From positions 1,366 to 65,365 of the forward strand of contig DASWKB010000043.1 in the NCBI GenBank assembly GCA_036396895.1: a stretch of DNA of 64,000 nt, written 5' to 3'. The notes under the pieces are model-generated. The model did no database searches. It had not been told where the DNA came from and was given only the letters and a program-made list of their open reading frames with translations. The translations under genes were made by a program, and so were the position numbers. Source of the DNA: a bacterium (GTDB taxonomy: Bacteria; Omnitrophota; Gorgyraeia; Aquiviventales; Aquiviventaceae). Within the stretch, counting starts at the first letter, position 1. Every line of letters begins with the position of its first letter. Shown here piece after piece: positions 2,735 to 38,567 of the stretch.

Positions 2735-3291
2735 CGCGCGTCCTCGGCTTCCCGCTCCGGGCGGCTCCTCCGCCAGGCCGCCAGCAATCCGTCGAGATAC
2801 GCCGCGGCCTCCGCGGAGGACGTCGTCACCGTCAGCTGCGGATCTTGCGGCGCCGTCGCGTCGAACACGACCCGCGCCGGCGTCCAGGCCGCCGGCTCCA
2901 CCGGGGACGCCGCGCCCGGCGGCGCGGACGCGAACGTGAACTCGAACTCCGCGTCGAGCACCATGCCGTACACGCTCGTGCGCAGCGCGAGCGCTCGTAA
3001 ACGGGTGAACGCAAGCGGACGGTCGCGCGCCTCGGCGAACGCCTCGAGCTGCGCTGCGCTCGCCGGGAATCGCTCGTGCGACTTCCAGAAGGCGTAGATC
3101 AGACGGCCGAGCTGCTCGGCCTCCTCCGCCAGCGGGTCCGTGGGACGCGTCGGGACCGGCGGCGTCACGGCGACGGGAGCGATGGGCATGGCGGGCGCCG
3201 CGCCCGGCGAGCCCGCGGCCAGCCGCGACCCCGCGCATCCCGCCGCCGCCACGGCCAGCAGCACCGCGCCGACCGCCGCTGCGACGTCCAT
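2731..3291 (-). CDS. lipoprotein, unknown function
   Basis: MDVAAAVGAVLLAVAAAGC carries a signal peptide and lipobox. The gene is translationally coupled to the SDR. Confidence 0.55.
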   Translation of the reverse strand: MDVAAAVGAVLLAVAAAGCAGSRLAAGSPGAAPAMPIAPVAVTPPVPTRPTDPLAEEAEQLGRLIYAFWKSHERFPASAAQLEAFAEARDRPLAFTRLRALALRTSVYGMVLDAEFEFTFASAPPGAASPVEPAAWTPARVVFDATAPQDPQLTVTTSSAEAAAYLDGLLAAWRRSRPEREAEDAR

Positions 3292-3444
3292 CGTCCATCG
3301 TTCACAGTCCACAGACCACCGTCCACAGACCACAGCCCAATACCCGACTCGTGCACGCATGGACACTCTCATGACCGTGCTGCACATGATGTCATGGCGG
3401 TGGACCGTCGTCTGTGGACTGTGGACTCGTTGCGATGGACGAAT
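3288..3444. repeat. long imperfect inverted repeat built from GTCCACAG-type units
   Basis: Left arm: cgtccatcgttcacagtccacagaccaccgtccac. Reverse complement of the right arm: cgtccatcgcaacgagtccacagtccacagacgacggtccac. The spacer is about 74 nt. Confidence 0.7.
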
Positions 3445-6067: not shown

Positions 6068-7018
6068 TTACAGCTCTCCCCACGACACGACGCGCGTCCC
6101 GTCGTACACGATCCTGGCGCGGAACGTGTCCGTGCTGGCGCCCGGCACCGCGGTCGAGAGCGCGCCCGGAGGCAGGAACAGCCAGCCCGGCGCGAGCACC
6201 GGAACCGGATGCCCCGTACCGAACACGTCGGCCGTCGTCATGCTCACGGGCCGGCGTCCGGCGTCGTCCGGCGCGAGCGTCCGTCCGGAGACGGGCGATG
6301 CCGGCGCGCCGGCGCCGCCCGGCTCGCGCGAAAGCTCATCGGACAGCACGAGATCGAGATCGCCGTCCCCGTCCACGTCGGTGAAGCTCGCCAGCATGTG
6401 GTAGCCGATCTCGATCGCCGCCTGGCTTCCCCCGGTCAGGGTCTCGGCGCCGCTCCAGAGGTCCGTGCGGCCGGAGAACGCCCCGGAGAACTGCAGGAGG
6501 TCCGGCACCCCATCCTGATCGGTGTAGAGCACCTGGAGATCCAGCGCGCCCGGCCAACCGTCGCGCTCGAACACGGGCCGAATGCGCCGCGCCACGATGA
6601 CCGAGATCGTGCGGCGGACGCCGTCACCGCCTGGCGACGGCGCGCTCATGCCGCTCGCGACGAACTGGACCCGGTCCGTCTCGAGGGGGACCGCGCGCAC
6701 CTCGTAGGCGCCCAGCGGCGCCGGGTCTCCCGCGGCGGACAGCGTCGCGCGCAGCGGAAAGCGCCCGCGGTCCCAGGCCGCGTCCCAGTCCTGCGTCAGG
6801 AGATCATTCGCGGCGTCGAGCCCCGCCTCGGCGAGGTAGAGCGCCTGCGCCCGATTCACCGTGCGCCCCACCATCCGCACCTGGACGGTCAGCAGCGTGA
6901 AAAACGTCGCCACCGCCGCGCCCAGGAACGCCAGGAACATGAGCGCCGTCGGCAGCAGGTAGCCGCCCTCCCGCCCGCGAGCGGCGTCAGCGGTTGCGCA
7001 GCCGGAACGTGGCGGCAT
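6068..7018 (-). CDS. GspK/PilX-like minor pseudopilin with an FG-GAP/VCBS-like segment
   Basis: N-terminal hydrophobic helix GGYLLPTALMFLAFLGAAVATFFTLL, then NRAQALYLAEAGLD, and FTDVDGDGDLDLVLSD. It is the last gene of the pseudopilin operon. Confidence 0.55.
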   Translation of the reverse strand: MPPRSGCATADAARGREGGYLLPTALMFLAFLGAAVATFFTLLTVQVRMVGRTVNRAQALYLAEAGLDAANDLLTQDWDAAWDRGRFPLRATLSAAGDPAPLGAYEVRAVPLETDRVQFVASGMSAPSPGGDGVRRTISVIVARRIRPVFERDGWPGALDLQVLYTDQDGVPDLLQFSGAFSGRTDLWSGAETLTGGSQAAIEIGYHMLASFTDVDGDGDLDLVLSDELSREPGGAGAPASPVSGRTLAPDDAGRRPVSMTTADVFGTGHPVPVLAPGWLFLPPGALSTAVPGASTDTFRARIVYDGTRVVSWGEL

Positions 7019-7625
7019 ACCGTCGCTCCTTCATGTGCGCCGTCTCCCCTTCGGCGCCGAGCTGCACGCGCAGCCGGAGGGTGATCGCGCGCGCCTGCGC
7101 AAGCACCGGCTGGTCGAACTCGAACAATCCCCCGCCGTCCGGGCGCGCGTCCAAACCCGCGAGCAGCTCGCGGGTGTCCGCACGGCGCAAGCCCGGCGCG
7201 AGGTCCCTGAGCGATCCCCCCTGCGCGTCCCGGTTCGTGAACACCCGGCGCGTCAGGCGGGAGCCGTCCGCTTCGGACTTACGCTCGTACACGATGAAAT
7301 CGTAGACGCCGTTCCGCTCCCGGCCGGCCGGATCAAACGCGGGGAGCCTCAGGATCAGCGTGTCGCTGCCCGTCCGGGCCTGGCTGCGGTAGGTGCGGCC
7401 GTCCAACACCACGGACTCCAAGGCGCCCGACGCCGCCTGAACGTCCCGCTCGAGGTGCTCCCGGAGCACCAGGACGCCGGTGTGCACCTGCTCACCCCGG
7501 CGCGCCCAGGTCAGCGACCGCGCGGTGCTGAGCAGGAAGTACGACAGCGCGCCGAGCAGCACGGAGGCGATCGCGAGGGTGCAGAGCATCTCGACCAGGG
7601 TGATCCCGCGCCTACCGGATGCCAT
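6987..7625 (-). CDS. prepilin-type N-terminal cleavage/methylation domain protein (GspJ-like pseudopilin)
   Basis: MASGRRG|ITLVEMLCTLAIASVLLGAL is a class III signal peptide with Glu at +5. Confidence 0.7.
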   Translation of the reverse strand: MASGRRGITLVEMLCTLAIASVLLGALSYFLLSTARSLTWARRGEQVHTGVLVLREHLERDVQAASGALESVVLDGRTYRSQARTGSDTLILRLPAFDPAGRERNGVYDFIVYERKSEADGSRLTRRVFTNRDAQGGSLRDLAPGLRRADTRELLAGLDARPDGGGLFEFDQPVLAQARAITLRLRVQLGAEGETAHMKERRYAATFRLRNR

Positions 7626-9170: not shown

Positions 9171-9255
9171 GCGTGTCGCAGCCAGGCTGCCATGGCTCAT
9201 GCCGTAGGCCCTGTAGCTTTGCGCCCCATCCTTTCGGATGGTTTGCCCACACCGC
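9171..9255 (-). ncRNA. c-di-GMP-I (GEMM-I) riboswitch aptamer
   Basis: The RNA reads gcggtgtgGGCAAACCauccGAAAggauGGGGCGCAAAGCuacaGGGCCUAcggcaugagccaugGCAGCCUGGCUGCgacacgc followed directly by AUG. It has the conserved GGCAAAC block, a GNRA-capped P2, the CGCAAAGC block and a GCnnGGnUnC 3' block. Confidence 0.8.
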
Positions 9256-9391
9256 CCGGGTTCGATGAATCTTGAGGGCCCCTGGCGGCTCCACGCAAAG
9301 GATCAAATAACAGGGAGGGCCATGCGTACGCCCGTATCCTCCCTAGCCAAAGCGTACCATATAGCCCAACTAAACGACAAGCCCGCCACAT

Positions 9392-9475
9392 CCGGGACAG
9401 TCACGGTTTTTCTTACTGGTTGATTCAGAAAGAGTTGGAACACCTGGCAAAAACCCGGGACTGTCCCGGGTTTTT
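9392..9475. repeat. REP pair (degenerate ccgggacagtcacgg plus perfect aaaaaCCCGGGACTGTCCCGGGttttt)
   Basis: The perfect copy at 9449-9475 lies 9 nt downstream of the stop at 9484 and also looks like a terminator. Confidence 0.8.
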
Positions 9476-9904: not shown

Positions 9905-10573
9905 TCAGCGGTTGTGGCCGGGCGCGGAGGCGCTCCGGCCGTGCTCACCGCCGTACCCGAGAACCCCGCCGGCCGCTCCGGATCCCATGGCGTGCGCCGG
10001 AGGACCGGACGACCCGCCGCCGCCGCGCGTCACGGACTGGCCCGGCGCCGACGTCAAGCCGGTCGCCCGAGCGGAGCCCTGACCGCGCGATGTGCCCTCC
10101 CGGCTCACCGACTGTGCGGCTGCTCCTTCATCCGGTGCGGGAAGCGCGGATGACCCATCGCTCCCTGGCCGGTTGACCGTCCCGAGCTTGGTTCCCAACT
10201 CCTGCGAGATCTGCCCCCAACCGAGCTTCTGCTCCGTCCGCATCGCCACCACCTGGTCGATGTTCTCCTGCGTGGCGCCGCCGGGGAGCTGCTCCGCGAG
10301 CGACAGCGCATGGTGAATTTCGCCGAAGCCGAACTGCTCCTGCCTGAGGTCGCCGATGACGCTCTCCTCGACTCCGAACTCGCCCGCCAGCTGCTGGGTG
10401 ACCTTGGCGACGCCCTCCGGAGTACTCGCCTGCTCGTCCAAATCTGACGGCGGCTCTTCGACAGCAGGCGGTTCAGTGACGGGCGGCTCCGTGTCCTGCG
10501 CCAGCACGGGTGAAACGGCCAGCATGCCGACCGCCGCCACGAGTATGAGGTATCCTGCCCGAATCGGGATCAT
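9905..10573 (-). CDS. secreted protein, unknown function
   Basis: Signal peptide MIPIRAGYLILVAAVGMLAVSPVLAQ, an acidic Pro-rich N-terminal part and a Gly/Ser-rich tail. RBS: gaggaggg. Confidence 0.55.
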   Translation of the reverse strand: MIPIRAGYLILVAAVGMLAVSPVLAQDTEPPVTEPPAVEEPPSDLDEQASTPEGVAKVTQQLAGEFGVEESVIGDLRQEQFGFGEIHHALSLAEQLPGGATQENIDQVVAMRTEQKLGWGQISQELGTKLGTVNRPGSDGSSALPAPDEGAAAQSVSREGTSRGQGSARATGLTSAPGQSVTRGGGGSSGPPAHAMGSGAAGGVLGYGGEHGRSASAPGHNR

Positions 10574-10608
10574 GCGTCCCTCCTCTGGTTCTGGATCAGC
10601 TCACGGAC

Positions 10609-10660
10609 ATGACAAGTCTACCCGGCAGGGCATGACAGCCCCATGACGCCAGGATGACAA
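10609..10660 (-). promoter_or_regulatory. Pho-box-like array of TGTCAT heptads at 11-bp phasing
   Basis: The reverse strand reads TTGTCATcctgGCGTCATggggCTGTCATgccc...cTTGTCATg. It lies 36-87 nt upstream of the ATG at 10573. Confidence 0.5.
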
Positions 10661-10687
10661 ACCCGTCACCCGGACTCCCGTTCGGCG

Positions 10688-11551
10688 TCACTGCCCCAGA
10701 GGCAGCATCTTCTTGAGGGAGTCCGTGGTCTGCTGGACCGTGTGGGATGCGCCCTCAAGGGCGTCCTTACCGGCTTCCTTCACGTCTTTGGTGGCGGACT
10801 CGAGCTGTTTGGCGGCCTGCGCCTGGGCGCCCTTCGTGGCGTCCACCGCTCCGCTCACCGCTCCGGTGGCCCGCTGCACCTGAGAGCCGAATTGGGCCTG
10901 CACGGCGGTGACGTCGATGCCCGTCAATCTTGCCACGCTGGTGTTCATCAGCGCCCGGCTGACGATCAGGCCCGCCAGCACCTGCGGGTTCGTGATGTCC
11001 CGGTAATGCTCATCCAGATTGAGCGCGAACTCCTGGACCTGGGGCGTCTCGCCCTTGGTGTAATCCTTGTAGATCACCCGCCCGACTTTGAGGTGCAGGT
11101 GGTCGATGGTGAGCGCCGAGCCCGGCCCTCCCGCTTCCTGGGCCGGCTCACCCTTCGCCGGCGTCTTGGACTGCTGCACGACCTCGAGCGAGTTCAGATT
11201 GACCGACCCGTCCTTGTTCTTCACGACCATGAACTCCTTCAGATTGAGGCGCACCTCTTCCAAATGCACTCGCCCTCCGAAGAAGCCAGGCAAATCGTAG
11301 TCGACGAAGATCTCGGGCAGGTCCACCATCACCGGATCAGTGAACCCGGGTGGATTCTTCACCTGGAGCCCGTAGATCCCCACCGCGGACCGGAGGAGCC
11401 CCACGTCCATCTTCGCGACGCGAAGGTCCAGCCCCGTCATGGCCTTGACCCCGCCTTGAATCGCCGCCTTGGCAATCAGATTCTTGCCCAGGACCAGCAC
11501 GACCACCAGGATCACCACCACGAACAGCAATTTCTTGAGTACGCCCATCAT
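10688..11551 (-). CDS. N-terminally membrane-anchored protein (AsmA/DUF748-like by composition), unknown function
   Basis: MMGVLKKLLFVVVILVVVLVLGK is a TM anchor. The body is beta-rich and the tail is Ala/Gln/Lys-rich and helical. Confidence 0.55.
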   Translation of the reverse strand: MMGVLKKLLFVVVILVVVLVLGKNLIAKAAIQGGVKAMTGLDLRVAKMDVGLLRSAVGIYGLQVKNPPGFTDPVMVDLPEIFVDYDLPGFFGGRVHLEEVRLNLKEFMVVKNKDGSVNLNSLEVVQQSKTPAKGEPAQEAGGPGSALTIDHLHLKVGRVIYKDYTKGETPQVQEFALNLDEHYRDITNPQVLAGLIVSRALMNTSVARLTGIDVTAVQAQFGSQVQRATGAVSGAVDATKGAQAQAAKQLESATKDVKEAGKDALEGASHTVQQTTDSLKKMLPLGQ

Positions 11552-26954: not shown

Positions 26955-29900
26955 ATGCTGAACCGGGTCCTGGCCTCCCTGTGCTTGGCGCTCCTCGTGT
27001 CGCTCTCCTTCCCGCCCCTGGCCTGGTGCCCCGAAGAGATCAAGCCGGAGCTCGACCTCAGCGTGACCGGGTATTTCCGGGTGCGCGGGTTCTGGGTGCA
27101 CGACCGCGACCAGCTCGAGCGCCTGCCCACGGGGCGATCCATCTCCGACATCGCCGCGCTGACCCCGAGCGCGGCCCCGCAGGACGCGGACGAGGGGTTC
27201 TTGGACATGCGGCTCATGATCAATCCGGAGCCCCAGATCACCGACAACATCCACGTCAACGCGCAGTTCCGCATTCTGGATAACTTCCTCCTGGACGGCG
27301 CCGGCGGCGCCGGGGGCGTGCGTCACATCGGCCTCAATCCCATTCTCGGGCTCGACTGGGCCGGGCGGCGCGACCACCCCGCCGAGTCGCTGGGACTCAA
27401 CGGCGTCATCGTCGCAACCGGCAACGCGGGGCGGGACAACGCCGCGGTTCTCTACGGCCCCAGCGGCGCCCCGTTCTCCTGGTTCACCGAGCGGCAGCTT
27501 AACGCCGACCCCGATCTCGGGACCACCCTCCTCAATCCTGGCTGCGACCTGTCCGGCCGTTACGTTATTCCCAAGAAGGACAAAGAGGGCGATAAGACCT
27601 CGGGGAAACAGTTCATGATGCGGGACCTCGAGCGGTGGCGCCATTCATCCGACGCGGCGCGCGCGGGGCTGAACGCGATTCCCGGCGGTTATCAGCGGGC
27701 CAACCTGCTCGGGACCGAACCCGAACTCGATGTGCTCATCCAGGAGTTCAGGTACGACCTGAATCAGTACCTGAACACCAGGACGGCCGTCCCGGTCAGC
27801 AACGACGCCGGCGCGGGGGGCGCCCAGCCGGCGGCCGGCAACCGGGACGTCGTCACGGATGACGACGTCAGACGCGGCGTGGAGAAGCTCGACGGCCCGG
27901 CACGTGATTTTGCGAATCAGTTCCTCGCGCCGGGGAAACCGCAGGCGGCTCCGCACACGCCGTCAGGATCGAGCCGGGCGCAGGCCGCCAGGGAGCACGA
28001 TGCCGAGCCGGAATTTGCGGTCGACCCGCGCTTGCTGCGCCTGCGCCTCCGGTATGACGGCGGCATGACCTCGATCGACCCCCCCACGACCGTCCTCTCG
28101 GTGCCCGAGACCCATGAGTCCATCCTGGACGATCTGGAGGCGCCCAAGCCGCTGAACCCCCATCAGCCGTCCGGACCCCAGGCCACCTCGCAGATGCCCG
28201 ATGGCACGACGGTCCGCACCTGGCAGGATGGCACTCGCGAAATCAGCCGGCCTGACGGCAGCCAGGACGTGATCTATCCCGACGGCGCCCGGTTTCACCG
28301 CAACCCTGACGGGTCCATGGTGGACACGCTGCGGGACGGCTCAACGGTCGCGCGCGACCGGACCGGAAAGGAAACCGGCCGGACCGCGGCCACCGGCGGA
28401 CGGGACGACGCCGTGATCCGCGACCCCCACAGCACGAGCACCGAGCCGCCGAAGCGGGTCGATCTCGACACCGGCCGAACGACGCCGGGTGAGCCGGCGC
28501 CCCCCGTGCCGGGCGGGTCGGGCGGTCCCGTCCAGCCATCCCGCACTGTCGTCACGGATGAAGACGCCGCCGACGCCATCCGGGAGCTTCCGGAAGATGC
28601 GCGGGGATTCCTGAATCAGTTCCTCTCTCCACAGGGAAGGCAGGACGTGGAGCGGTCGCTGCAGTCAGATGAATCGCAGCAGCACAAGACCACCCCGCGG
28701 GACTCCGCAAACTGGATGGGCGCCTCGCAGCCGGGACACGCAGATGGGCATGACGGCGGCGACGTCCAGGTCGAGCGCGCCTGGGCCGAGGTCAAGACGC
28801 CCGTCGGCCGGCTCGATTTCGGCCGGATGGGCTCGCACTGGGGCATGGGGCTCTTCGCGAACGACGGGAACCGTCTGGACTTGGGCTTCCAGGGCATGCA
28901 CGACGACGCGGGCGACACCATGGACCGCGTCAAGCTGATCATGAAGTTCGGCGATCTGTACGTCACGCCGCTCATCGACCGGGTCATCGAAGACGCGGTG
29001 GGCGACGGAGAAGACGACGTCCACCAATACCTGCTCGCCATCGTGTACCGGACGGACGAACTCCGGACCGGCACGTATGACGGGTTCCGGGAGCAGGACC
29101 CGCAGGCGCACCTCGACGGCGTCCCCGGTCAGCCGGTGTTCGGCATGGCCTGCATCGCGCGCGAATGCACGTTCATGTTCCCCCAGCCCGGCGCCGCGCG
29201 CGGCCAGGGTTTCACCGATGCGCTGCTGGGGACTATCAACACCGGGGCGCTGCATCCGGTCGTGCGCGCCGATGCACAGCAGACCGGCCAGGATCTGCGC
29301 AACATCGCGCGGGTCGACTGGGGCTGGACCCAGGGCTCCGAGCAGCAGACGTTCGCCCAGACCCGCAACCAGAGCGACGAGGTCGAGTTCGATTGGGAGA
29401 CGATCGTCCCGCGCCTCGGGCTCGCCTATGCGTTGGGCAACGAACGCCGGACGCTCCTGCGCGCCTCGTACAGCCGCTTCGCCGACCAGCTCGGCACGAG
29501 CATCGGCGAGCCCTCGAGAGACATCATCACCGACCGCGACGTGCTCAGCGCGTTCAACGGGCTCGACCAGCAGACCCAGCAATTCCTCGGGGATTTCCTC
29601 GTCCCGGACGGCCGTATCGAGCAGCCGCTCGATCAGACGGACTCGTTCGGGTCAGCGCCCGGCGGCCCGCTCGTGAAGGACACGCTCTGGTTCTTCGACC
29701 GTCGAGCGCCGCACACGGGGACCGGGACCCAATCCGAACCGGCGGCCGCCCGAACCGGGCCCGGCACGGCCGACCTCTCCAGGCTGGACGACACGCAGAT
29801 CTTCAGCTCCAACTTCTACCTGACCGGCCTGGACTCCTATGCCAACCGCGGATTCAATCCTCTCCCAGACCAATCCTACTCCGGGACCCGGCCGTTCATG

Positions 29901-31535
29901 CCGCAAGACTGGCAGCCGCGGCAGCTCGGGATCCTGCCCCTGGGCTGCTCCCACAATGAGAAAGCCACCAGCATCGGCGGCATCCGGCAGATGTGGGACG
30001 GACAGACACCCTCGCTCTTGGGGTTCTACTTCGGCGAGCCGATTTTCTGGTTCCTGCCTCAGGATGACGCCGTGCGGCCGAATGACCCGCTCTATCAGCG
30101 CCCGCCGGAGGAGTACAAAGCGCTCGAGCGCAAAGAGGCGCGGGAGGATTTCAAACGGCGCCGTCAGTCGTTCCATGAGATGGCCGCCGCGTCCATGGCC
30201 GCCGGCACGGGCATGCCATCCCCCACCGCCCTGCAGGGCCCGACGCACGCGGGCCAGGAGCCGCTCAAGGCGATCGACCAGTGGGGCCTGCGGGCCGTCG
30301 GCTTTACGCCGCTCTCCGAGCCCGGTTCGGCCTGGGCGATCATCGACGGCATGCGGCCGAACGTCACCGTCGCCGTCATCGATTCCGGCCTCGATCTCGC
30401 CCATCCGGACGGCCCCGCGCACGTGTGGACCAACCCGCGCGAAATCGACGGCAACGGGATCGATGACGATAAGAACGGGTACATCGACGACATCCACGGC
30501 TGGAACTTCGTCGAGGAAAACGCGGACCTGACGGACCGGCACGGGCATGGGACGCTCGTCGCCGGCATCATCGCCGCTCAGCGGGACAACGGGATCGGCA
30601 TCGCGGGCATCAACCCCGGCGCCCGCATCATGCCGCTCAAGGTCCTCGATGAGCAGGGGAAAGCGAACAGCCTGAACCTGTACCGCGCCATCCACTATGC
30701 GGTGGACCACGGCGCGCGCGTCCTGAACATCAGCCTGGGGAATAAGGGGCTCTCGCACCTCGACCAGCTCGCGGTGAACTACGCGCACGCGCGCGGGGCG
30801 ATCGTGATCGTCGCCGCCGGGAACCAGGGAGACGACATCGCGCTGTACGGTCCGGCGTCGCTCCGCCGGGTCCTGGCCGTCGCCGCCTCGAATGTGGACG
30901 GCGCGCGCAGCGGCCTGTCGAACCGCGGCCCCAATGTCGCGCTGACGGCCCCCGGACAGGAGATCTATTCCCTGCACTCGCAGGACGCTCCGTGGCCGGG
31001 CGATCCCGGCGAGCGCGACCGCCTCTACCGCAAGGCGACCGGCACGTCCTTCGCGGCGCCCATCGTGGCGGCCACCGCGTCGCTGCTCATCGCCCGCGAT
31101 CCGCACCTGCCCAACTGGCTCATCGAAGACATCCTGATGGGCGCCGCCGGAGAATTCGGCGCGGCGGGCTGGGATCCGGAGACCGGGTGGGGAATGCTGG
31201 ACGCCCGCCGGGCGCTCGGATACGACGTCGGAGAGGCGGTCACGGTGCTGCCGGCCGAAGTGGTGGTCGCGCGCGACAAGAAGCGGATCGATGCCGTCAG
31301 CATTTACGGGGTCGTGCGGGGCGTGTTCTCCACCTACACCGTCGAACTCGGCAAGGGCGCCCGGCCGGACGACTGGACGCGCGTCGCCGGCCCGTCGGAC
31401 CGCCCGGTCGAATACGGCCTGCTCGCGGAAATCCCGGGAGACGCCCTCAAGAAAGGCAAGGCGTGGACCGTCCGCATCACGGCCACCCGTCCGGACGGAC
31501 GCTCCCGCTCCGCCTCACTGCCCCTCTCCCTCTAA
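26955..31535 (+). CDS. 1526-aa exported protein: porin-like N-terminal region, internal repeats, C-terminal subtilisin (S8) peptidase
   Basis: It has a signal peptide. The S8 triad contexts are VAVIDSGLD (Asp near aa 1143), HGHGTLVAG (His near 1198) and GTSFAAPIVAA (Ser near 1365). N-terminal beta-strand-like segments include LSVTGYFRVRGFWVH and RAWAEVKTPVGRLDFGRMGSHWGMG. Confidence 0.85.
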   Translation: MLNRVLASLCLALLVSLSFPPLAWCPEEIKPELDLSVTGYFRVRGFWVHDRDQLERLPTGRSISDIAALTPSAAPQDADEGFLDMRLMINPEPQITDNIHVNAQFRILDNFLLDGAGGAGGVRHIGLNPILGLDWAGRRDHPAESLGLNGVIVATGNAGRDNAAVLYGPSGAPFSWFTERQLNADPDLGTTLLNPGCDLSGRYVIPKKDKEGDKTSGKQFMMRDLERWRHSSDAARAGLNAIPGGYQRANLLGTEPELDVLIQEFRYDLNQYLNTRTAVPVSNDAGAGGAQPAAGNRDVVTDDDVRRGVEKLDGPARDFANQFLAPGKPQAAPHTPSGSSRAQAAREHDAEPEFAVDPRLLRLRLRYDGGMTSIDPPTTVLSVPETHESILDDLEAPKPLNPHQPSGPQATSQMPDGTTVRTWQDGTREISRPDGSQDVIYPDGARFHRNPDGSMVDTLRDGSTVARDRTGKETGRTAATGGRDDAVIRDPHSTSTEPPKRVDLDTGRTTPGEPAPPVPGGSGGPVQPSRTVVTDEDAADAIRELPEDARGFLNQFLSPQGRQDVERSLQSDESQQHKTTPRDSANWMGASQPGHADGHDGGDVQVERAWAEVKTPVGRLDFGRMGSHWGMGLFANDGNRLDLGFQGMHDDAGDTMDRVKLIMKFGDLYVTPLIDRVIEDAVGDGEDDVHQYLLAIVYRTDELRTGTYDGFREQDPQAHLDGVPGQPVFGMACIARECTFMFPQPGAARGQGFTDALLGTINTGALHPVVRADAQQTGQDLRNIARVDWGWTQGSEQQTFAQTRNQSDEVEFDWETIVPRLGLAYALGNERRTLLRASYSRFADQLGTSIGEPSRDIITDRDVLSAFNGLDQQTQQFLGDFLVPDGRIEQPLDQTDSFGSAPGGPLVKDTLWFFDRRAPHTGTGTQSEPAAARTGPGTADLSRLDDTQIFSSNFYLTGLDSYANRGFNPLPDQSYSGTRPFMPQDWQPRQLGILPLGCSHNEKATSIGGIRQMWDGQTPSLLGFYFGEPIFWFLPQDDAVRPNDPLYQRPPEEYKALERKEAREDFKRRRQSFHEMAAASMAAGTGMPSPTALQGPTHAGQEPLKAIDQWGLRAVGFTPLSEPGSAWAIIDGMRPNVTVAVIDSGLDLAHPDGPAHVWTNPREIDGNGIDDDKNGYIDDIHGWNFVEENADLTDRHGHGTLVAGIIAAQRDNGIGIAGINPGARIMPLKVLDEQGKANSLNLYRAIHYAVDHGARVLNISLGNKGLSHLDQLAVNYAHARGAIVIVAAGNQGDDIALYGPASLRRVLAVAASNVDGARSGLSNRGPNVALTAPGQEIYSLHSQDAPWPGDPGERDRLYRKATGTSFAAPIVAATASLLIARDPHLPNWLIEDILMGAAGEFGAAGWDPETGWGMLDARRALGYDVGEAVTVLPAEVVVARDKKRIDAVSIYGVVRGVFSTYTVELGKGARPDDWTRVAGPSDRPVEYGLLAEIPGDALKKGKAWTVRITATRPDGRSRSASLPLSL

Positions 31536-31581: not shown

Positions 31582-32247
31582 TCACCGGAACTGCGCGGCG
31601 AGCGCGCGCACAGCGCGGTACCGGAAACAGCCGACCACATGGTCGTTGACCATGCCGGTCGCCTGCATGTGGGCATAGCAGATGGTGGAGCCGACGAACC
31701 GGAAGCCCTCGCCCTTCAGCGTCCGGCTCAACAGATCGGACTCAGGCGTCCGCGCCGGCAGCTTCCGCGTGCTTTGATACGCGTGTTGGATGGGCCGCCC
31801 GCCGATCAAGCCCCACATGAACCGGGCGAAGGTGCCGTGCCGGCGGCGGATTCGCAGGAACGCCTGTGCATTGGCGATGGCGGACTCGATTTTGAGCCGG
31901 TTGCGGATAATGCCGGCGTCCGCCATGTGCGCCCGAACCTTGGCGCTCCGGTAGCGCGCCACCCGCTCCGGATCAAACCCGTCGAACGCCCGCCGGAACG
32001 CCGCGCGCTTCTTCAGCACCGTCAGCCAACTCAAGCCCGCCTGCATCCCTTCGAGCACGAGAAACTCGAACAGCCTCCGGTCCCCCCGCAGCGGCACGCC
32101 CCACTCGGTGTCGTGATAGGCCTGCATGAGCGGATGGATGAGCGCCCACTCGCATCTCCTGACGCGAGCGGGCGCGGACGCCTTCGCCGCAGCCTCGTTC
32201 GCGGCGGCCTCATCATCACTGACACGAGAACCTGACGTGACCATCAC
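31582..32247 (-). CDS. tag: DNA-3-methyladenine glycosylase I
   Basis: YHDTEWGVP, FLVLEGMQAGLSW, GIIRNRLKI, and ATGMVNDH...C. Confidence 0.9.
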   Translation of the reverse strand: MMVTSGSRVSDDEAAANEAAAKASAPARVRRCEWALIHPLMQAYHDTEWGVPLRGDRRLFEFLVLEGMQAGLSWLTVLKKRAAFRRAFDGFDPERVARYRSAKVRAHMADAGIIRNRLKIESAIANAQAFLRIRRRHGTFARFMWGLIGGRPIQHAYQSTRKLPARTPESDLLSRTLKGEGFRFVGSTICYAHMQATGMVNDHVVGCFRYRAVRALAAQFR

Positions 32248-32376
32248 TCCATTATTGCGGCCTGATCGCCCGCGTCAATCACGAAGCTCGCCGCCGAAGC
32301 GGATCGCTTTGCAGCATTTCCATATGACGCGCATCATATGGTATGCTTAAATGTGAAGGCCCTCAGGGGCTTCATT

Positions 32377-32474
32377 GATCCCGTAGTCAAAGGCAAACCC
32401 GGAGAAATCCGGGGACGCAAAGCCACAGGCCTAACCCGAGAGGTATGGCGGCTGGGCTGCCAGCGGGAACGATC
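32377..32474 (+). ncRNA. c-di-GMP-I (GEMM-I) riboswitch aptamer
   Basis: gatcccgtagtcaaaGGCAAACCcggaGAAAtccggGGACGCAAAGCCacaGGCCTAAcccgagaggtatGGCGGCTGGGCTGCCagcgggaacgatc. Every conserved GEMM-I block is present, and a P1 helix can form between gatcccg and cggga(ac)gatc. It lies 124 nt upstream of the sensor kinase ATG. Confidence 0.88.
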
Positions 32475-32597
32475 CAGGAGACCGTGCGCGTCTCTGTGAT
32501 GCCCAGGCGGGGACGGGCTGATCGGGCGCGCAGGCAGCAGCGTGTTGCCGCCTCGCGGGTGGGCGAGGAACGTATCGGCCACCGGTGAGGAGCGGTC

Positions 32598-35500
32598 ATG
32601 ACGGAGCCAGTTCCCAGTCTCTCCGCGTACGCCTTCAACCCGTTTGCGATTCCTCCGTTCCTCACCGCGCTCGGACTGTGCGCGCTCACGATCGCCGTCG
32701 TTCGCCGGGAGCGCGCCTCGTACGTGAGCCGGCTCTTCGCCGTCATGGCCGCCGCCATCAGCGTGTGGCTTTTCGCGTTTACCGGGATGTACAGCGCCGC
32801 CTCCGACGACGCCGCCCGCTGGTGGGCCCAAGCGGCGTACCTCGGCGTGCCGTTCATCCCTTCCGCCGTCTACCATTTCAGCCTCGAGGTGCTCGGCAAG
32901 GCCCGGGAGCGGCGCCACATGCTGATCGCCTCGTGGATCCTCTCCGGCGTGTTCGCCGTCATCGCCATCGGCACCGATTGGCTCATCGCCGGCATGACGT
33001 CCTACTGGTGGGGCGCGTACCCGCGCTACGGCGCGATGAGCATTCCGTATCTGGTCTTTTTCTTTGCCATGATGCTGCTCACGCTCCATCACTACCGCAG
33101 CGCCGCTCGACTCGCGGAGCCCGGCAGCCTCCAGGCGCGGCGTACGCAAGCCCTCCTGACCGCGTTCATCATCGTGTATCTGGGCTCCGTCGACTACCTT
33201 GCCAAATTCGGTCTGCCGGTCTATCCGTGCGGGTTCGTGCCGGTGATGATCTTTCTCATCCTGACTGCCCGCGCCGTCAAGCGCTACCGGCTCATCGACA
33301 TCACGCCCGCGTTCACCGCGGAACCGATTCTGGAGTCCATGCGCGAAGCGCTGATCGTGATCGACCTGGAGGGCGTGATCCGGCTCGTCAACCGCGCCGC
33401 CTGCGAGCTGCTCGGCGTCCCATCGGAATGGGTGCGCGGACGCACCCTGACGGGGCTGGCCGGGCATGCGCCGTTCCACGGCGATCTCGGGGCGCTGGTC
33501 CAGTCCGACACGCTGCCCCAGTACACCGAGATCCTCTACCAGCATCCGTCCGGGGCCGCCAGGACGCTCGCGCTGTCGACTTCGGTGATTCGCGATTCCG
33601 ACGGCCAACCGGCCGCCGTCGCCTGCTTTCTCCGGAACGTCACCCCCGAGCAACACGATGCCGCCCTGCTGGCCCGCGTCGGCGAGATGAGCCGGGCGTG
33701 GCGGCGCGCAAGCACGAACGGGGGCGGGACCTCGGGCGCGGCCTCCGGGGACCCCTCCCGGCGCCGCGGACGCCGCGAGGGGATCCGGGTCTCCGCCGCA
33801 GAGACGGGCGTCGGCTTCCCGCTGCCGGTCCCGTGGTTCCTCTCGTCGCACTGGAAGCTCCTCGTGACCCTCGGCATGCTGCTGGGCGTGCCCCTGTTGG
33901 TCATGATGTGGCTGGAGGTCCACCACGCCGAGCGGTGGCTGTATTCGCAGGCACAAGCCCAGCACATCGTCTCGGCCAAGCTGGCCGCCAAAGCGGTCGA
34001 GGAGCACCTCCAGGGGCTGCGCCATTATGTGGAAAGCTTCGCGTCGCGTTCCCTGCTCGCGCATGCCGTGGAAACCGCCCGGTCAGGCACCGTCGAGGAC
34101 AACCTCAAGGAGCTCGTGGAGCGCAATCCGCTCCTGGACCGCGCCTTCGTCGTGGACGCGTCCGGCACGCTCTGGGCCGACTATCCCGTCGTGCAGTCAG
34201 TCCGGGGAGAGAATTTCGCGCATCGCCGCTGGTTTCAGGAGGTCGCCGCCGCCAAGGCTCCGCACATCTCGGCGGTGTACGAGCGCAGCGCCGACCCGCA
34301 AGTCCCGCTGGTCGCCATCGCCGTGCCCATCCGGAACAGCCGGCAGGTGCTGCTGGGATACCTGGTCGCTCAGCACCCGCTCAGCGCCTTGAACGAGTGG
34401 TTCACCGGCAACCAGCCGGCCTCGCTCGGGCTGGTGGAGCTGTTGGACGGCGAGCACCGGCTGGCCGCGAGGAATGTGCCCTTCTCCGACCGCACCTGGC
34501 CCGTGCTCAGCCGGCTCCCCGCCATCCGCGACCTGGGCCGGGAGGGCGCCGGCGCGCTCGAAGTCCGCAGCGATGGCTTTTCGGAAGCGTTCATGACCAG
34601 CTATGCGCCGATCGCGTCGATGCGCTGGATCGTGCTGATCGCGCAGCCGCTCTCACGCGTGCTGGCGCCGGCGCGCGCGCTTCAATCCAGCGGACTCGTG
34701 ATCGCGCTCCTGGGGTTCCTCACCGCCATCGCGATCGGGTACCTGGCGCTCGTCTCGCTGCGCCACTCCCACGAGATGCTCGCGACATCCGACGCGGCCA
34801 AGGCCCGGCACGTGGCTTCGCTGCGCCGCGCGCTCGCGGAACGCGCCAAAGCGGAGGAGGCGCTCAAGCAGCTTGCCTTCATCGTCGAATCCTCCCGTGA
34901 CGCCATCATCGGCGAACGCCTGGACCGGACCATCGTGACCTGGAACGCGGCGGCCGAGCGCCTTTTCGGCTACGCCGAACAGGAGGTCGTCGGCCGCTCC
35001 ATGACGATGCTCATCCCTCCCGGGTCTCCCGATGAGATTCCGCAGATGCTCGCGGAGCTGTCTTCCGGACAGCCCGTCGAGCCGCTCGAAACCGTCCGGA
35101 TCCGCCGGGACGGCACCCCGATCGCCCTCCTGATGACGCTCTCACCCGTCAAGAACCCGGCGGGCGACATCATCGGCGCGTCGGTGATCGCCCACGACAT
35201 CACCGAGCGGAAGCATCAGGAGGACGCGCTGCGCCAAATGAATTTTCAGCTCGCCGAGCGCCAGCGCGCCCTGATGGCCACCCTCGGCAAGCTCCATACC
35301 GCGCACCGCGAACTCAAATCCACGCAGCTGCAGCTCATTCAGGCGGCCAAGATGGAGTCGGTGGGCCGGCTGGCCGCCGGCGTCGCCCATGAGGTGAAGA
35401 ATCCGCTCGCGACCCTCCTCATGGGTCTCGACGTCCTCACGGACCATTACCCGTCCCGCAAGCACGACGTCATCTCGCTGCTGACCGACATGCAGCATGC

Positions 35501-36110
35501 CGTCCGCCGCGCCGACACCGTCATTCGAGGCCTGGTCGACTTTTCGGCCCCGCACGAGCTGGCGCGCTCGCGCGAAGACCTGAACGCCCTCATCAGGCAG
35601 GCGCTGGTCCTGACGAAACACCAGCAGAACCGCCATCACGTCACGGTCCAAGCGCGCTTTGCGCCCCTGCCCGCGCTTTCGCTCGACCGGACCAAAATCG
35701 AGCAGGTCTTCCTGAACCTCATCCTGAACGCGGTCCAGGCGATGCCGGAGGGCGGCGTGCTCAGCCTCACCACCGCCGTGGTGCCGGCGGAGCGTGTCCG
35801 CCCGTCGAACGGCCAGGGCCGACACGGCTGGACGCCCGCCGGGCCGCTGGTCGTTGAGGCGACGGTGAGCGACACCGGCCCCGGCATCCCCCGGGAGAAG
35901 CTGCACAAGGTCTTCGACCCGTTTTTCACGACCAAGGCCACCGGGCAAGGCACCGGGCTCGGGCTGGCCGTCAGCAGGAAAATTGTCGAGCTGCATGGGG
36001 GGACGATGCTGCTCTCTAACCGCGCCGAAGGAGGCGTCGAGGTCAGCGTCTTCTTCAACGCCGAAAGGGGGAATGAACATGGAACGGCATCGCATTCTGC
36101 TCGTGGATGA
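32598..36110 (+). CDS. sensor histidine kinase (N-terminal 7TM sensor, PAS, periplasmic Cache-like region, PAS, HisKA, HATPase_c)
   Basis: 7TM region ending in KRYRLIDI; H-box AAGVAHEVKNPLA; N-box LNLILNAVQAM; G1 DTGPGIP; G2 GTGLGLAVS. Confidence 0.9.
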   Translation: MTEPVPSLSAYAFNPFAIPPFLTALGLCALTIAVVRRERASYVSRLFAVMAAAISVWLFAFTGMYSAASDDAARWWAQAAYLGVPFIPSAVYHFSLEVLGKARERRHMLIASWILSGVFAVIAIGTDWLIAGMTSYWWGAYPRYGAMSIPYLVFFFAMMLLTLHHYRSAARLAEPGSLQARRTQALLTAFIIVYLGSVDYLAKFGLPVYPCGFVPVMIFLILTARAVKRYRLIDITPAFTAEPILESMREALIVIDLEGVIRLVNRAACELLGVPSEWVRGRTLTGLAGHAPFHGDLGALVQSDTLPQYTEILYQHPSGAARTLALSTSVIRDSDGQPAAVACFLRNVTPEQHDAALLARVGEMSRAWRRASTNGGGTSGAASGDPSRRRGRREGIRVSAAETGVGFPLPVPWFLSSHWKLLVTLGMLLGVPLLVMMWLEVHHAERWLYSQAQAQHIVSAKLAAKAVEEHLQGLRHYVESFASRSLLAHAVETARSGTVEDNLKELVERNPLLDRAFVVDASGTLWADYPVVQSVRGENFAHRRWFQEVAAAKAPHISAVYERSADPQVPLVAIAVPIRNSRQVLLGYLVAQHPLSALNEWFTGNQPASLGLVELLDGEHRLAARNVPFSDRTWPVLSRLPAIRDLGREGAGALEVRSDGFSEAFMTSYAPIASMRWIVLIAQPLSRVLAPARALQSSGLVIALLGFLTAIAIGYLALVSLRHSHEMLATSDAAKARHVASLRRALAERAKAEEALKQLAFIVESSRDAIIGERLDRTIVTWNAAAERLFGYAEQEVVGRSMTMLIPPGSPDEIPQMLAELSSGQPVEPLETVRIRRDGTPIALLMTLSPVKNPAGDIIGASVIAHDITERKHQEDALRQMNFQLAERQRALMATLGKLHTAHRELKSTQLQLIQAAKMESVGRLAAGVAHEVKNPLATLLMGLDVLTDHYPSRKHDVISLLTDMQHAVRRADTVIRGLVDFSAPHELARSREDLNALIRQALVLTKHQQNRHHVTVQARFAPLPALSLDRTKIEQVFLNLILNAVQAMPEGGVLSLTTAVVPAERVRPSNGQGRHGWTPAGPLVVEATVSDTGPGIPREKLHKVFDPFFTTKATGQGTGLGLAVSRKIVELHGGTMLLSNRAEGGVEVSVFFNAERGNEHGTASHSARG

Positions 36111-36537
36111 CGAGGTCGGCTTCGCGAATACGCTCAAGACATACCTGGAGCTCACCGGCCGCTATACCGTGAGAGCCGTGCACCGGGCGGAGGAAGCCCT
36201 GGCGGTCGCGGAGGCGTTCCGGCCGGACCTCATCCTGCTGGACGTGATCATGCCGGACACCGACGGCGGCCATCTGGCCGCCGACATGCGCGAACATGAG
36301 GAGCTCAAGCGCGTCCCGATCATCTTTCTGACCGCGGCTGTCTCGCGACAGGAGGCCGCGGCGAAAGAGGGCGTGATCGGGGGCCAGCTCTTCATGGCCA
36401 AACCGGTCACCGCGCGCGAAGTCATGGCGAAGATCGACCAGTACTTGAAGCAGCCTGCGGCGAAGTCCGGAGCCCCAGCCGGCGCGCCGCCTCGGAGGGG
36501 GTCGCAATGGCACCGCATGCACGCAAGCGGATCTTGA
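36073..36537 (+). CDS. receiver-only response regulator (CheY-like)
   Basis: ILLVDDE, DLILLDVIMPDTDG, and FLTA...KP. The start overlaps the kinase 3' end by 38 nt. RBS: gggggaATG. Confidence 0.85.
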   Translation: MNMERHRILLVDDEVGFANTLKTYLELTGRYTVRAVHRAEEALAVAEAFRPDLILLDVIMPDTDGGHLAADMREHEELKRVPIIFLTAAVSRQEAAAKEGVIGGQLFMAKPVTAREVMAKIDQYLKQPAAKSGAPAGAPPRRGSQWHRMHASGS

Positions 36538-36899
36538 TCGTCGAGGATGACGAGGCGCTGGCGCGGGTCGTCAAAATGCGGCTGCAGTCGGTCGGCTATG
36601 AGGCGCGCGCGGAATCGCTCGGGAAGAAGGCGCTCGGATATGCCGCCGCGTTCCGCCCGGACCTGGTCATTCTCGACATCAACCTGCCCGACTGCAGCGG
36701 TTACCAGGTGGCGCGCGAGCTCAGGCGGATCTTTCACCCCTGGCCCGTGCCGGTCCTGATGCTGACGGTCAAGAACCAGCCGGCCGATCAGCTGCGCGGA
36801 TTCGCCTTCGGCGCGGACGCGTACCTGACGAAGCCCTTCGACTCAAGCGAGCTGTTCGAGACGGTGGCGCTGCTGACGCAAGAGCCCGCCGCGGCGTGA
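36507..36899 (+). CDS. receiver-only response regulator (second)
   Basis: ILIVEDDE, DLVILDINLPDCSG, MLTV, and YLTKPF. It overlaps the previous gene by 31 nt. Confidence 0.85.
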   Translation: MAPHARKRILIVEDDEALARVVKMRLQSVGYEARAESLGKKALGYAAAFRPDLVILDINLPDCSGYQVARELRRIFHPWPVPVLMLTVKNQPADQLRGFAFGADAYLTKPFDSSELFETVALLTQEPAAA

Positions 36900-37016
36900 C
36901 TCATTCGGGAACGACTTCAGGGACGGTCACCTTGTTGAGCGACGGTGACTGTTCCCGATTCGATTTCAAAGCGGAAAAGGCGCCTGTCCCCGATGTCCAC
37001 TGGTATACTGCGATGT

Positions 37017-38567
37017 ATGACGGCAGTGGGACGGCTCGAGCGCGCGGCTGACCGGCTGCTGGAGCGGCTGGCGCTGCGTCCGTGGCGGATGGCGCTCCCC
37101 GTCGTGTCCCTCGCCTTCCTGGGCATCCTCACACGCATCGTCATCGCCGACCCCGATCTGTTCGCCCGCATCGCGCTCGGCCGGCTCATCTGGGCCTCGG
37201 GCGCGATCCCGCATGCCGACCCGTTCTCCTACACCACCACCCGGGCCTGGATCGACCATGAATGGGGCGCCGGCGTCGTCTTCTACGCGATCAGCCGGCT
37301 CGGCGGGGACCTGCCCCTGTTTCTCTGGGCCTGCGCCACCGCCGCGGCGGCGATCGCGCTCGCGCATGCGGCGCAGCGCGCGCTGACCCGCCACGCCCGG
37401 GCGGCGCTCGCCTGGCTGTGCCTCGGGCTCGCGCCCTGCCTGATCGTGTGGATGCCCGTCGCGCGTTCGCGCATCTTCACGTTCCTGTGTTTTTCGGTCT
37501 TCCTCCTGGCCTGCGCGCGCCTGCGGGCGCGCGGCCGGACCCGGCTCCTTTGGATCCTGCCCGGCATCATGCTCTTCTGGGCCAACGCGCACGCCGGGTT
37601 CGTCGCGGGGCTGGGCACGCTCGCCATCCTGACGGTCGCGCTGCTGCTCGAGGGCCGGCGGAAGGCCGGACTGGCAGCCGGCGCGGCGCTGCTGGGCTGT
37701 CTCGTGGCGACCCTCGTCAACCCGTATGGCCCCGCCTTCTGGACCTACGTGCTGGAGGCGGTGACGATGAGCCGGATCCGCGTCACGGAATGGCACCCCA
37801 CGAACCTGCTGAGCGCCGACGGCTTGTATCTGGTGTTCGTCGCCGGCGTCTTGCTCGCCGGCCTCGCCCGGGACCGCCGCTCGATCCCGCTCGAAGGGAA
37901 GCTCCTGCTGGCCATCGTGTTCATCCAGGCCGTCCGGCACTTCCGGCTCGTGCCGCTCTTCCATTGGCTCGCCATCGTGTACGGCACGAACGCGTTCGCG
38001 GCAGTCCTCGCGCCGCTGCAGCGCCGGTGGCCTCACCGATTCCGGATCTGGCGCCGCGCGCTGGCGATGGCGCTGGCCGGCGCCGCGCTGGCCGGCGCCG
38101 TGTCCGTGGGGGCGGCGCTGGCGCGGGGTGGGGGGTACCGGCTGCGGTATTCGCATCTGCCCGTTGGCGCGATGGCCTGGCTTGTCGCGCATCGGGACGG
38201 CGGACGGTTGCTGGTGCACTTCAATGAGGGGAGCTACGCGCTGTGGCGGGGGTACCCGGACTTCACGGTTTCGCTGGACGCGCGCTACGACGCGGTGTAC
38301 CCCGAGGAGACCGTCGCACGGGTCGCCGAGGCGTTCTACCGCTCGACGCCAGATCTGCCGGCCGTCATCGAGGAGATCGGCGCCGACTACATCCTCATCT
38401 GTCCGGGACTCTCGGAACACGTGGCGACGGCCGCGCAATACGGGCCGCGCTGGCGGGTCATCTACGCGGATGCGCGGTGCCAGATCCTGTCGCAGACGCC
38501 GAATCCGGACGGACGCCTCGGCCGGCCTTCTGAGACGTGGCCCGACATCTGGACCCCGAACTTCTAG
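37017..38567 (+). CDS. large polytopic membrane protein, possible GT-C-type glycosyltransferase
   Basis: It has more than 10 TM segments, DPFSYT...IDHEWG in the first loop, and a soluble C-terminal domain. Alternative starts are at 36945 and 36993. Confidence 0.5.
   Translation: MTAVGRLERAADRLLERLALRPWRMALPVVSLAFLGILTRIVIADPDLFARIALGRLIWASGAIPHADPFSYTTTRAWIDHEWGAGVVFYAISRLGGDLPLFLWACATAAAAIALAHAAQRALTRHARAALAWLCLGLAPCLIVWMPVARSRIFTFLCFSVFLLACARLRARGRTRLLWILPGIMLFWANAHAGFVAGLGTLAILTVALLLEGRRKAGLAAGAALLGCLVATLVNPYGPAFWTYVLEAVTMSRIRVTEWHPTNLLSADGLYLVFVAGVLLAGLARDRRSIPLEGKLLLAIVFIQAVRHFRLVPLFHWLAIVYGTNAFAAVLAPLQRRWPHRFRIWRRALAMALAGAALAGAVSVGAALARGGGYRLRYSHLPVGAMAWLVAHRDGGRLLVHFNEGSYALWRGYPDFTVSLDARYDAVYPEETVARVAEAFYRSTPDLPAVIEEIGADYILICPGLSEHVATAAQYGPRWRVIYADARCQILSQTPNPDGRLGRPSETWPDIWTPNF

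Follow-up and report, generated by a model that had tools for sequence, protein, structure and literature searches.

The 64,000-nt stretch of contig DASWKB010000043.1 analysed here (the window) very probably carries a genuine class I cyclic di-GMP riboswitch aptamer (c-di-GMP-I or GEMM-I; 32374-32473 on the plus strand), which would act in cis on an operon for a large sensor histidine kinase and two stand-alone receiver proteins. All coordinates are positions in the window unless the locus of a relative is named. The assignment draws on a match to the Rfam family RF01051, on a closing P1 helix predicted by RNAfold and on covariation among five aptamers. When the whole window is scanned with the Rfam covariance models, RF01051 (gathering score 35) is the only family to pass its threshold, and it does so at two sites: one at 32382-32464 on the plus strand, scoring 77.7 bits (E 1.5e-13) over model positions 1-87 of 87, and another at 9174-9257 on the minus strand, scoring 61.7 bits. 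At 32382-32464, RF01051 is also the top-scoring family of its clan. An earlier note on this DNA had proposed such an aptamer at about 32377-32474 on the plus strand and had named RF01051 as the model by which to check it; the full-length match, at more than twice the gathering score, bears out both.

When the model structure is mapped onto the window aptamer, all 20 of its 20 consensus pairs are Watson-Crick. The first hairpin (32393-32418) has the architecture of the class, namely a 2-bp plus 6-bp stem with a 3-nt internal loop, capped by a GNRA loop that here reads GAAA (32404-07). By alignment to the model, an AAA linker (32419-21) joins it to the second hairpin (32421-32458), in which the segments CCUAAC (32430-35) and GUAUGG (32443-48), with their receptor-like CCUAA and UAUGG, resemble the 11-nt tetraloop receptor, C32435 standing in place of the usual G. 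In minimum free energy (MFE) structures of 32360-32500, the aptamer is closed by a P1 helix of 9 bp, in which 32374-77 and 32379-83 pair with 32464-68 and 32470-73 around a single A32378.A32469 mismatch, and the fold comprising P1 and the aptamer is the MFE structure or close to it for transcripts ending at 32480-32530. A P1 helix had been foreseen in the earlier note and does exist in the folds, but the register written there uses U32379 and C32380 twice; in other respects the account given there is right to within one base. We aligned the four complete aptamers associated with related kinases (those of the window and of the loci L055, L034 and L017) with the second aptamer of the window. Across these five, 91% of cells are paired (23-45% in controls with slid partners), 8 of the 20 pairs show changes on both sides, and the covariation score is equalled in none of 500 shuffles.

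The RNAs of the GEMM-Ib type that select cyclic GMP-AMP (cGAMP) reportedly have an A at position 20, and the work of Kellenberger and colleagues and of Nelson and colleagues, both in 2015, is said to identify G20A as the main determinant of selectivity. This hallmark is absent from the window aptamer: the unpaired G just 5' of the first helix, equivalent by model alignment to G20, is retained as G32392, and the GGCAAAC block is intact within 32382-32464. In the Vc2 RNA the ligand is contacted by G20, A47 and C92 (PMC5888326), and the alignment to the model indicates that the equivalents of all three are kept in the window, the C92 equivalent being part of a CC (32460-61) placed 3' of the second hairpin. 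Because G32392, the AAA linker and this CC are preserved, we infer that the ligand is more likely to be c-di-GMP than cGAMP, which upholds an argument already made in the earlier note. A different cyclic dinucleotide as the ligand, for instance 3',3'-cGAMP, is very improbable. The idea gains something from GEMM-Ib RNAs sharing the fold and being matched by models of the same clan (PMC5888326), and from the relative L017, whose aptamer reads AGCACCC in place of GGCAAAC and so has an A at the G20 position, a change associated with cGAMP selectivity; it is opposed by G32392 and the GGCAAAC block of the window aptamer itself and by RF01051 being its best family in the clan.

The position of the aptamer is that of a 5'-regulatory element: it lies on the same strand as the kinase open reading frame (ORF) with no gene between them, and the upstream neighbour is divergently transcribed. 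Such an arrangement recurs among relatives. Searching metagenomes with the N-terminal 7TM-PAS part of the kinase yielded 45 loci, to which single look-ups added others, and four of these relatives have RF01051 immediately upstream and on the same strand as the kinase. In L055, from an Omnitrophica metagenome-assembled genome, a match of 86.4 bits lies 65 nt before the kinase ATG. In L034, a match of 58.2 bits is followed by an intrinsic terminator, a 77-residue helix-turn-helix ORF (region 2133-2520) and the kinase. In L017, a match of 39.7 bits (80-172) is followed by a terminator with a U9 tract (183-225), a PilZ-like ORF (243-572) and then the 7TM kinase; this ORF specifies 109 residues with RxxxR and NxSxxG motifs. 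The fourth case, L007, is partial, in that a contig edge leaves only the 3' half of the aptamer (model positions 48-87, 16.3 bits, E 0.31 within 130 nt); it stands 65 nt upstream of the ATG of an operon with the same order of kinase, receiver and receiver. No further RF01051 match was found in the approximately 302 kb of relatives' loci scanned, and none in the more distant relatives, which comprise hybrid kinases and GGDEF-EAL proteins. The co-occurrence of riboswitch and kinase family that the earlier note had proposed to examine thus holds for these four relatives but not for most of the others. In a neighbour-joining tree of the N-terminal sensor, which is star-like, the aptamer-bearing loci are scattered and do not form one clade. 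The sole full-length orthologue of the kinase in a large protein collection (P0002; 46% identity, with 350 nt upstream) has the same kinase-receiver-receiver order, and GTDB representative genomes give only distant matches to the C-terminal kinase part, at 26-29% identity, and so supply no orthologous leader.

Downstream of the aptamer lies a G-rich expression platform of 124 nt (32474-32597), the functions of whose elements are inferred from folding and a terminator scan. From the 'gatc' at 32474, the distance between the aptamer 3' end and the kinase ATG at 32598 is 123-124 nt, matching the 124 nt given previously. The platform begins with a small hairpin (32477-32496; gagac/gtctc repeat arms within 32478-32494), which has an energy of -6.8 kcal/mol, lacks a U tract and is followed by UGUGAUG. 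Two segments able to pair with the 3' half of the aptamer come next (32501-09 and 32519-38, the latter paired in the free MFE structure), and these would be typical 'anti-aptamer' segments. A hairpin at 32505-32553 has a local energy of -27.4 kcal/mol. The last hairpin (32551-32590; -26.8 kcal/mol, or -32.3 kcal/mol when extended to the AUG) buries the Shine-Dalgarno (SD) sequence GGUGAGGAG (32584-32592), which lies 5' of the AUG at 32598, by pairing an anti-SD CCUCGC (32551-56) with its GGUGAGG. Both of the platform hairpins that the earlier note had offered as possible are present, gagac/gtctc at 32478-32494 and cctcgc/gcgagg at 32551-32568.

Given these elements, the riboswitch might work as follows. 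Once c-di-GMP is bound, P1 and the second aptamer hairpin would be held in place, and the aptamer 3' half (32449-32473) would no longer be free for the competing pairings with 32501-09 and 32519-38. The 124-nt leader would refold, the anti-SD CCUCGC (32551-56) would cover the ribosome-binding site (SD 32584-92, AUG 32598) to a different extent, and c-di-GMP would in this way set the amount of the kinase and receiver phosphorelay that is made. In constrained folding of the leader, enforcing the aptamer costs only 3.7 kcal/mol relative to the free MFE, which the energy of ligand binding could plausibly make up. Our tentative preference, at somewhat less than an even chance, is for control of the operon at the level of translation.

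Several observations weigh against this picture and have to be set beside it. The aptamer is not obligatory for this kind of operon: L016 and L010 have the same operon type without it (the kinase core being 54% identical, and the second receiver 61% in L016), and L056 also lacks it. The SD hairpin (32551-32590) persists in both the free and the aptamer-enforced states under every thermodynamic model, and the mean unpaired probability of the SD, 0.13 versus 0.20-0.24 between the states, predicts no clear switch. The fold results shift with the 3' boundary that is chosen. A four-strand relay suggested by the inverted repeats, running from the aptamer 3' strand through 32501-09 and the hairpin 32505-53 to the anti-SD, would free the SD but was rejected, since the best fold with the aptamer enforced is 5.8 kcal/mol more favourable; this relay through 32505-32553 appears only transiently in folds of the growing transcript and is carried here purely as a conjecture. 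Finally, a sigma-70 consensus scan finds no plus-strand promoter in the AT-rich patch preceding the aptamer (32322-32355). With the SD hairpin predicted in either state and the relay costing 5.8 kcal/mol, the folds point to no one regulated step or sign.

The lack of a clear predicted switch, together with the existence of orthologous operons that work without an aptamer, could be taken to mean that the RNA is no cis-regulator of the kinase operon at all, and is instead an abundant stand-alone RNA that buffers c-di-GMP or a relic with no regulatory effect. We regard this as very improbable: the aptamer is fully intact and on the kinase strand, it recurs, with compensatory changes, at the 5'-regulatory site of related kinases in four other contigs, and no terminator separates it from the kinase gene. 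A more serious contender keeps the same aptamer but has it govern transcription, through termination in 32474-32597 that depends on Rho or is otherwise non-canonical; the hairpin 32477-32496 with its trailing UGUGAUG would be one candidate site. Canonical intrinsic terminators do stand directly 3' of the aptamer in L034 and L017, terminators overlap the aptamer in about a quarter of GEMM examples (PMC1950547), and, with the window SD buried in both predicted states, regulation may act at a step other than translation. Set against this, the intrinsic-terminator scan of the window leader found none, the hairpin in question is weak and has no U tract, and the leader is rich in G (133 nt with 58 G and 37 C) where a Rho loading site would be C-rich, which argues against Rho loading there. 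Transcriptional control is on balance unlikely, at about half the probability that we give to translational control.

As to the sign of a translational switch, we lean towards c-di-GMP turning expression ON, though with low confidence and short of an even chance; the OFF sign is clearly less likely still, and the remainder is undecided. This lean follows from the short leader of L055, where the SD is paired with an aptamer strand (CCCCUG) in the free fold and becomes accessible once the aptamer is enforced, an ON-type prediction, and from ON logic being common for GEMM (PMC1950547). Constrained folds of L034 and L017 retain the terminator in both states and give no ON or OFF logic.

The relatives without the aptamer show what can occupy its place. 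In L016 (3500-3980) and L010 (2100-2565), the place of the aptamer is taken by a LysR-type gene in divergent orientation, with about 100 nt of AT-rich intergenic DNA, and it looks from these sequences as if the RNA sensor had been swapped for a protein regulator. In L056, an HTH_17 gene (3252-3434) heads an operon with the order receiver, kinase, kinase, receiver, receiver, which ends next to a gene for an MshEN/T2SSE ATPase (9981-10739). MshEN is a known c-di-GMP-binding domain.

The operon itself begins with the sensor histidine kinase (32598-36110, plus strand; 1170 residues), whose N-terminus aligns from residue 1 with its homologues. Pfam recognises in it HisKA_7TM (22-237), PAS (~245-350), dCache_1 (448-681), a second PAS (758-868), HisKA (923-983) and HATPase_c (1030-1155), and its H-box AGVAHEVKNPLA contains the invariant phospho-acceptor His931. 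Hydrophobicity read by eye from the translation predicts transmembrane (TM) segments flanking the dCache_1 domain. We read the layout as seven TM segments, a cytoplasmic PAS, one TM segment, a periplasmic dCache, another TM segment, and a cytoplasmic PAS followed by the kinase core, which would make nine TM segments altogether. Next comes receiver 1 (36073-36537, plus strand), of 154 residues, or 152 if translated from a second ATG at 36079; it matches Response_reg only, has the DD, D, T and K residues intact and ends in a C-terminal tail of about 30 residues. Receiver 2 (36507-36899, plus strand; 130 residues) likewise matches Response_reg only, retains its acidic pocket, Asp, Thr and Lys, and is 58% identical to its counterpart in L007 and 61% to that in L016. 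The kinase and receiver 1 genes overlap by 38 nt (32 nt from ATG 36079) and the two receiver genes by 31 nt, so the Pfam matches and coordinates agree with the kinase length, the receiver-only genes and both overlaps as described in the earlier note. The overlap between the kinase and receiver 1 genes is about 29-38 nt in four of four loci, namely the window (36073-36110), L007 (2756-2784), P0002 and P0004, and exceeds the usual 1 or 4 nt; the conservation of an overlap of about 30 nt suggests translational coupling.

With a HisKA domain bearing its His, a HATPase_c domain and receivers in which the acidic pocket, Asp, Thr and Lys are all preserved, the operon has the make-up of a two-component system. 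These domains agree with the phosphorelay proposed in the earlier note, but its further option of a 'chemotaxis-like' output finds no support: no CheA, CheW or methyl-accepting chemotaxis protein genes occur within about 10 kb on either side of the operon, and among PDB sequences the best matches of the receivers are the receiver domains of RpaA, PhoP, YycF, CtrA and PleD, ahead of CheY. We rejected a chemotaxis role on these two grounds. Pfam scans of 37 ORFs of the window show no GGDEF, EAL, HD-GYP or PilZ gene.

The operon is bounded upstream by a gene for 3-methyladenine glycosylase I (31582-32247, minus strand) with its own promoter-like site, and downstream by a gene for a polytopic membrane protein of 516 residues without a Pfam match (37017-38567, plus strand). 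The latter was considered as an operon member and rejected, since it is not syntenic in the relatives and is separated from receiver 2 by a gap of 118 nt with a possible hairpin CGGTCACC...GGTGACTG (36924-36951) and a TATACT box. As this gene is not syntenic and the upstream gene is divergent, the unit consists of the leader, the kinase and the two receivers.

Between the divergent glycosylase gene and the riboswitch, an AT-rich patch extends over 32320-32355. The earlier note had called 32322-32355 an AT-rich promoter patch; the composition is as claimed, with 38% G+C against about 68% for the window, but the promoter itself went undetected in the sigma-70 scan cited above. A weak candidate on the plus strand can be read from the sequence, made up of ATGACG (32325-32330), a spacing of 17 nt and TTAAAT (32347-32352) preceded by TG, with 8 of 12 matches to consensus. 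Its -35 element is overlapped by a near-perfect palindrome of 22 bp (32320-32341), with the arms CCATATGACGC and GCATCATATGG, which could be the operator for a dimeric regulator acting besides the riboswitch.

Elsewhere in the window, the second aptamer (9174-9257, minus strand) precedes a gene with a start resembling a signal peptide (near GTG 9113; no Pfam match), and further downstream is a gene with a prepilin N-terminal methylation motif (6987-7625), in a cluster that reaches to about 6068. To judge by its genes, the cluster is apparently of a secreted or pseudopilin type, which is a classic target for GEMM. Just upstream of the promoter region of this riboswitch, at about 9449-9475, lies AAAAACCCGGGACAGTCCCGGGTTTTT, a symmetric terminator-like palindrome flanked by runs of A and T. 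Another conspicuous gene (26955-31535, plus strand) encodes a protein of 1526 residues with a C-terminal subtilase domain (Peptidase_S8) and a long N-terminal region without a confident domain match. The TypA protein of the window is 76-86% identical to proteins for which every named source is a metagenome-assembled genome of Candidatus Omnitrophica/Omnitrophota. The window also contains an LpxD gene, and from its sequence the host is a high-G+C, diderm, Omnitrophota-like uncultivated bacterium.

The kinase family is repeatedly tied to c-di-GMP signaling, through the riboswitch, the PilZ gene, the MshEN ATPase and 7TM-PAS paralogues that end in GGDEF-EAL. The last three of these are the hints behind a broader, speculative proposal: that Omnitrophota-like bacteria have a recurrent, c-di-GMP-gated phosphorelay module made up of the aptamer, the HisKA_7TM-PAS kinase and the two receivers, that c-di-GMP would there set the abundance of a sensor kinase which in turn feeds back on the turnover of c-di-GMP or on type IV pili, and that the window version would have a terminator-less, multi-helix relay platform undescribed for the class. 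Taken as a whole this proposal is improbable. What the locus does offer is a well-supported added example of a second-messenger riboswitch that would control the synthesis of a two-component system, in a candidate phylum without a genetic system. It should be of use in annotating such genomes and in choosing leaders for reporter or biosensor work. Knowledge of the riboswitch class is unchanged by it, as the gene category has been on record since 2007 (PMC1950547), and the additions are modest: the host lineage, the recurrence in one 7TM-PAS kinase family otherwise linked to c-di-GMP components, and the terminator-less platform.

Full-text literature searches turned up no account of c-di-GMP riboswitches from Omnitrophota. 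The closest known system is Vc2 of Vibrio cholerae, as represented by RF01051, with which the window RNA shares the AAA-joined hairpins, the GAAA loop, the equivalents of G20, A47 and C92, the P1 helix and the location in a 5' untranslated region; its CCUAA/UAUGG resembles the tetraloop receptor. It differs in its long (124 nt) platform lacking a terminator and in its Omnitrophota-like host, and its class is assigned from sequence. The cGAMP riboswitches of the GEMM-Ib type in Geobacter have the same fold and belong to the same clan, but the window aptamer has G and not A at the G20 equivalent, and no cytochrome or pilus genes follow it. Bc1 of Bacillus thuringiensis (PMC11218506) resembles the window RNA in combining a class I aptamer with an unusually long expression platform, but that platform holds two rho-independent terminators whereas the window leader has none. 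With respect to the genes controlled, Table 2 of Weinberg et al. 2007 lists PAS, histidine kinase, HAMP, cheY and Cache among those recurrently associated with GEMM (PMC1950547). The window operon, with its PAS/Cache histidine kinase and CheY-fold receivers, falls within this set, and is distinguished by a specific HisKA_7TM-PAS kinase family accompanied by two co-translated stand-alone receivers; the association of the riboswitch with this kinase family recurs in metagenomic relatives.

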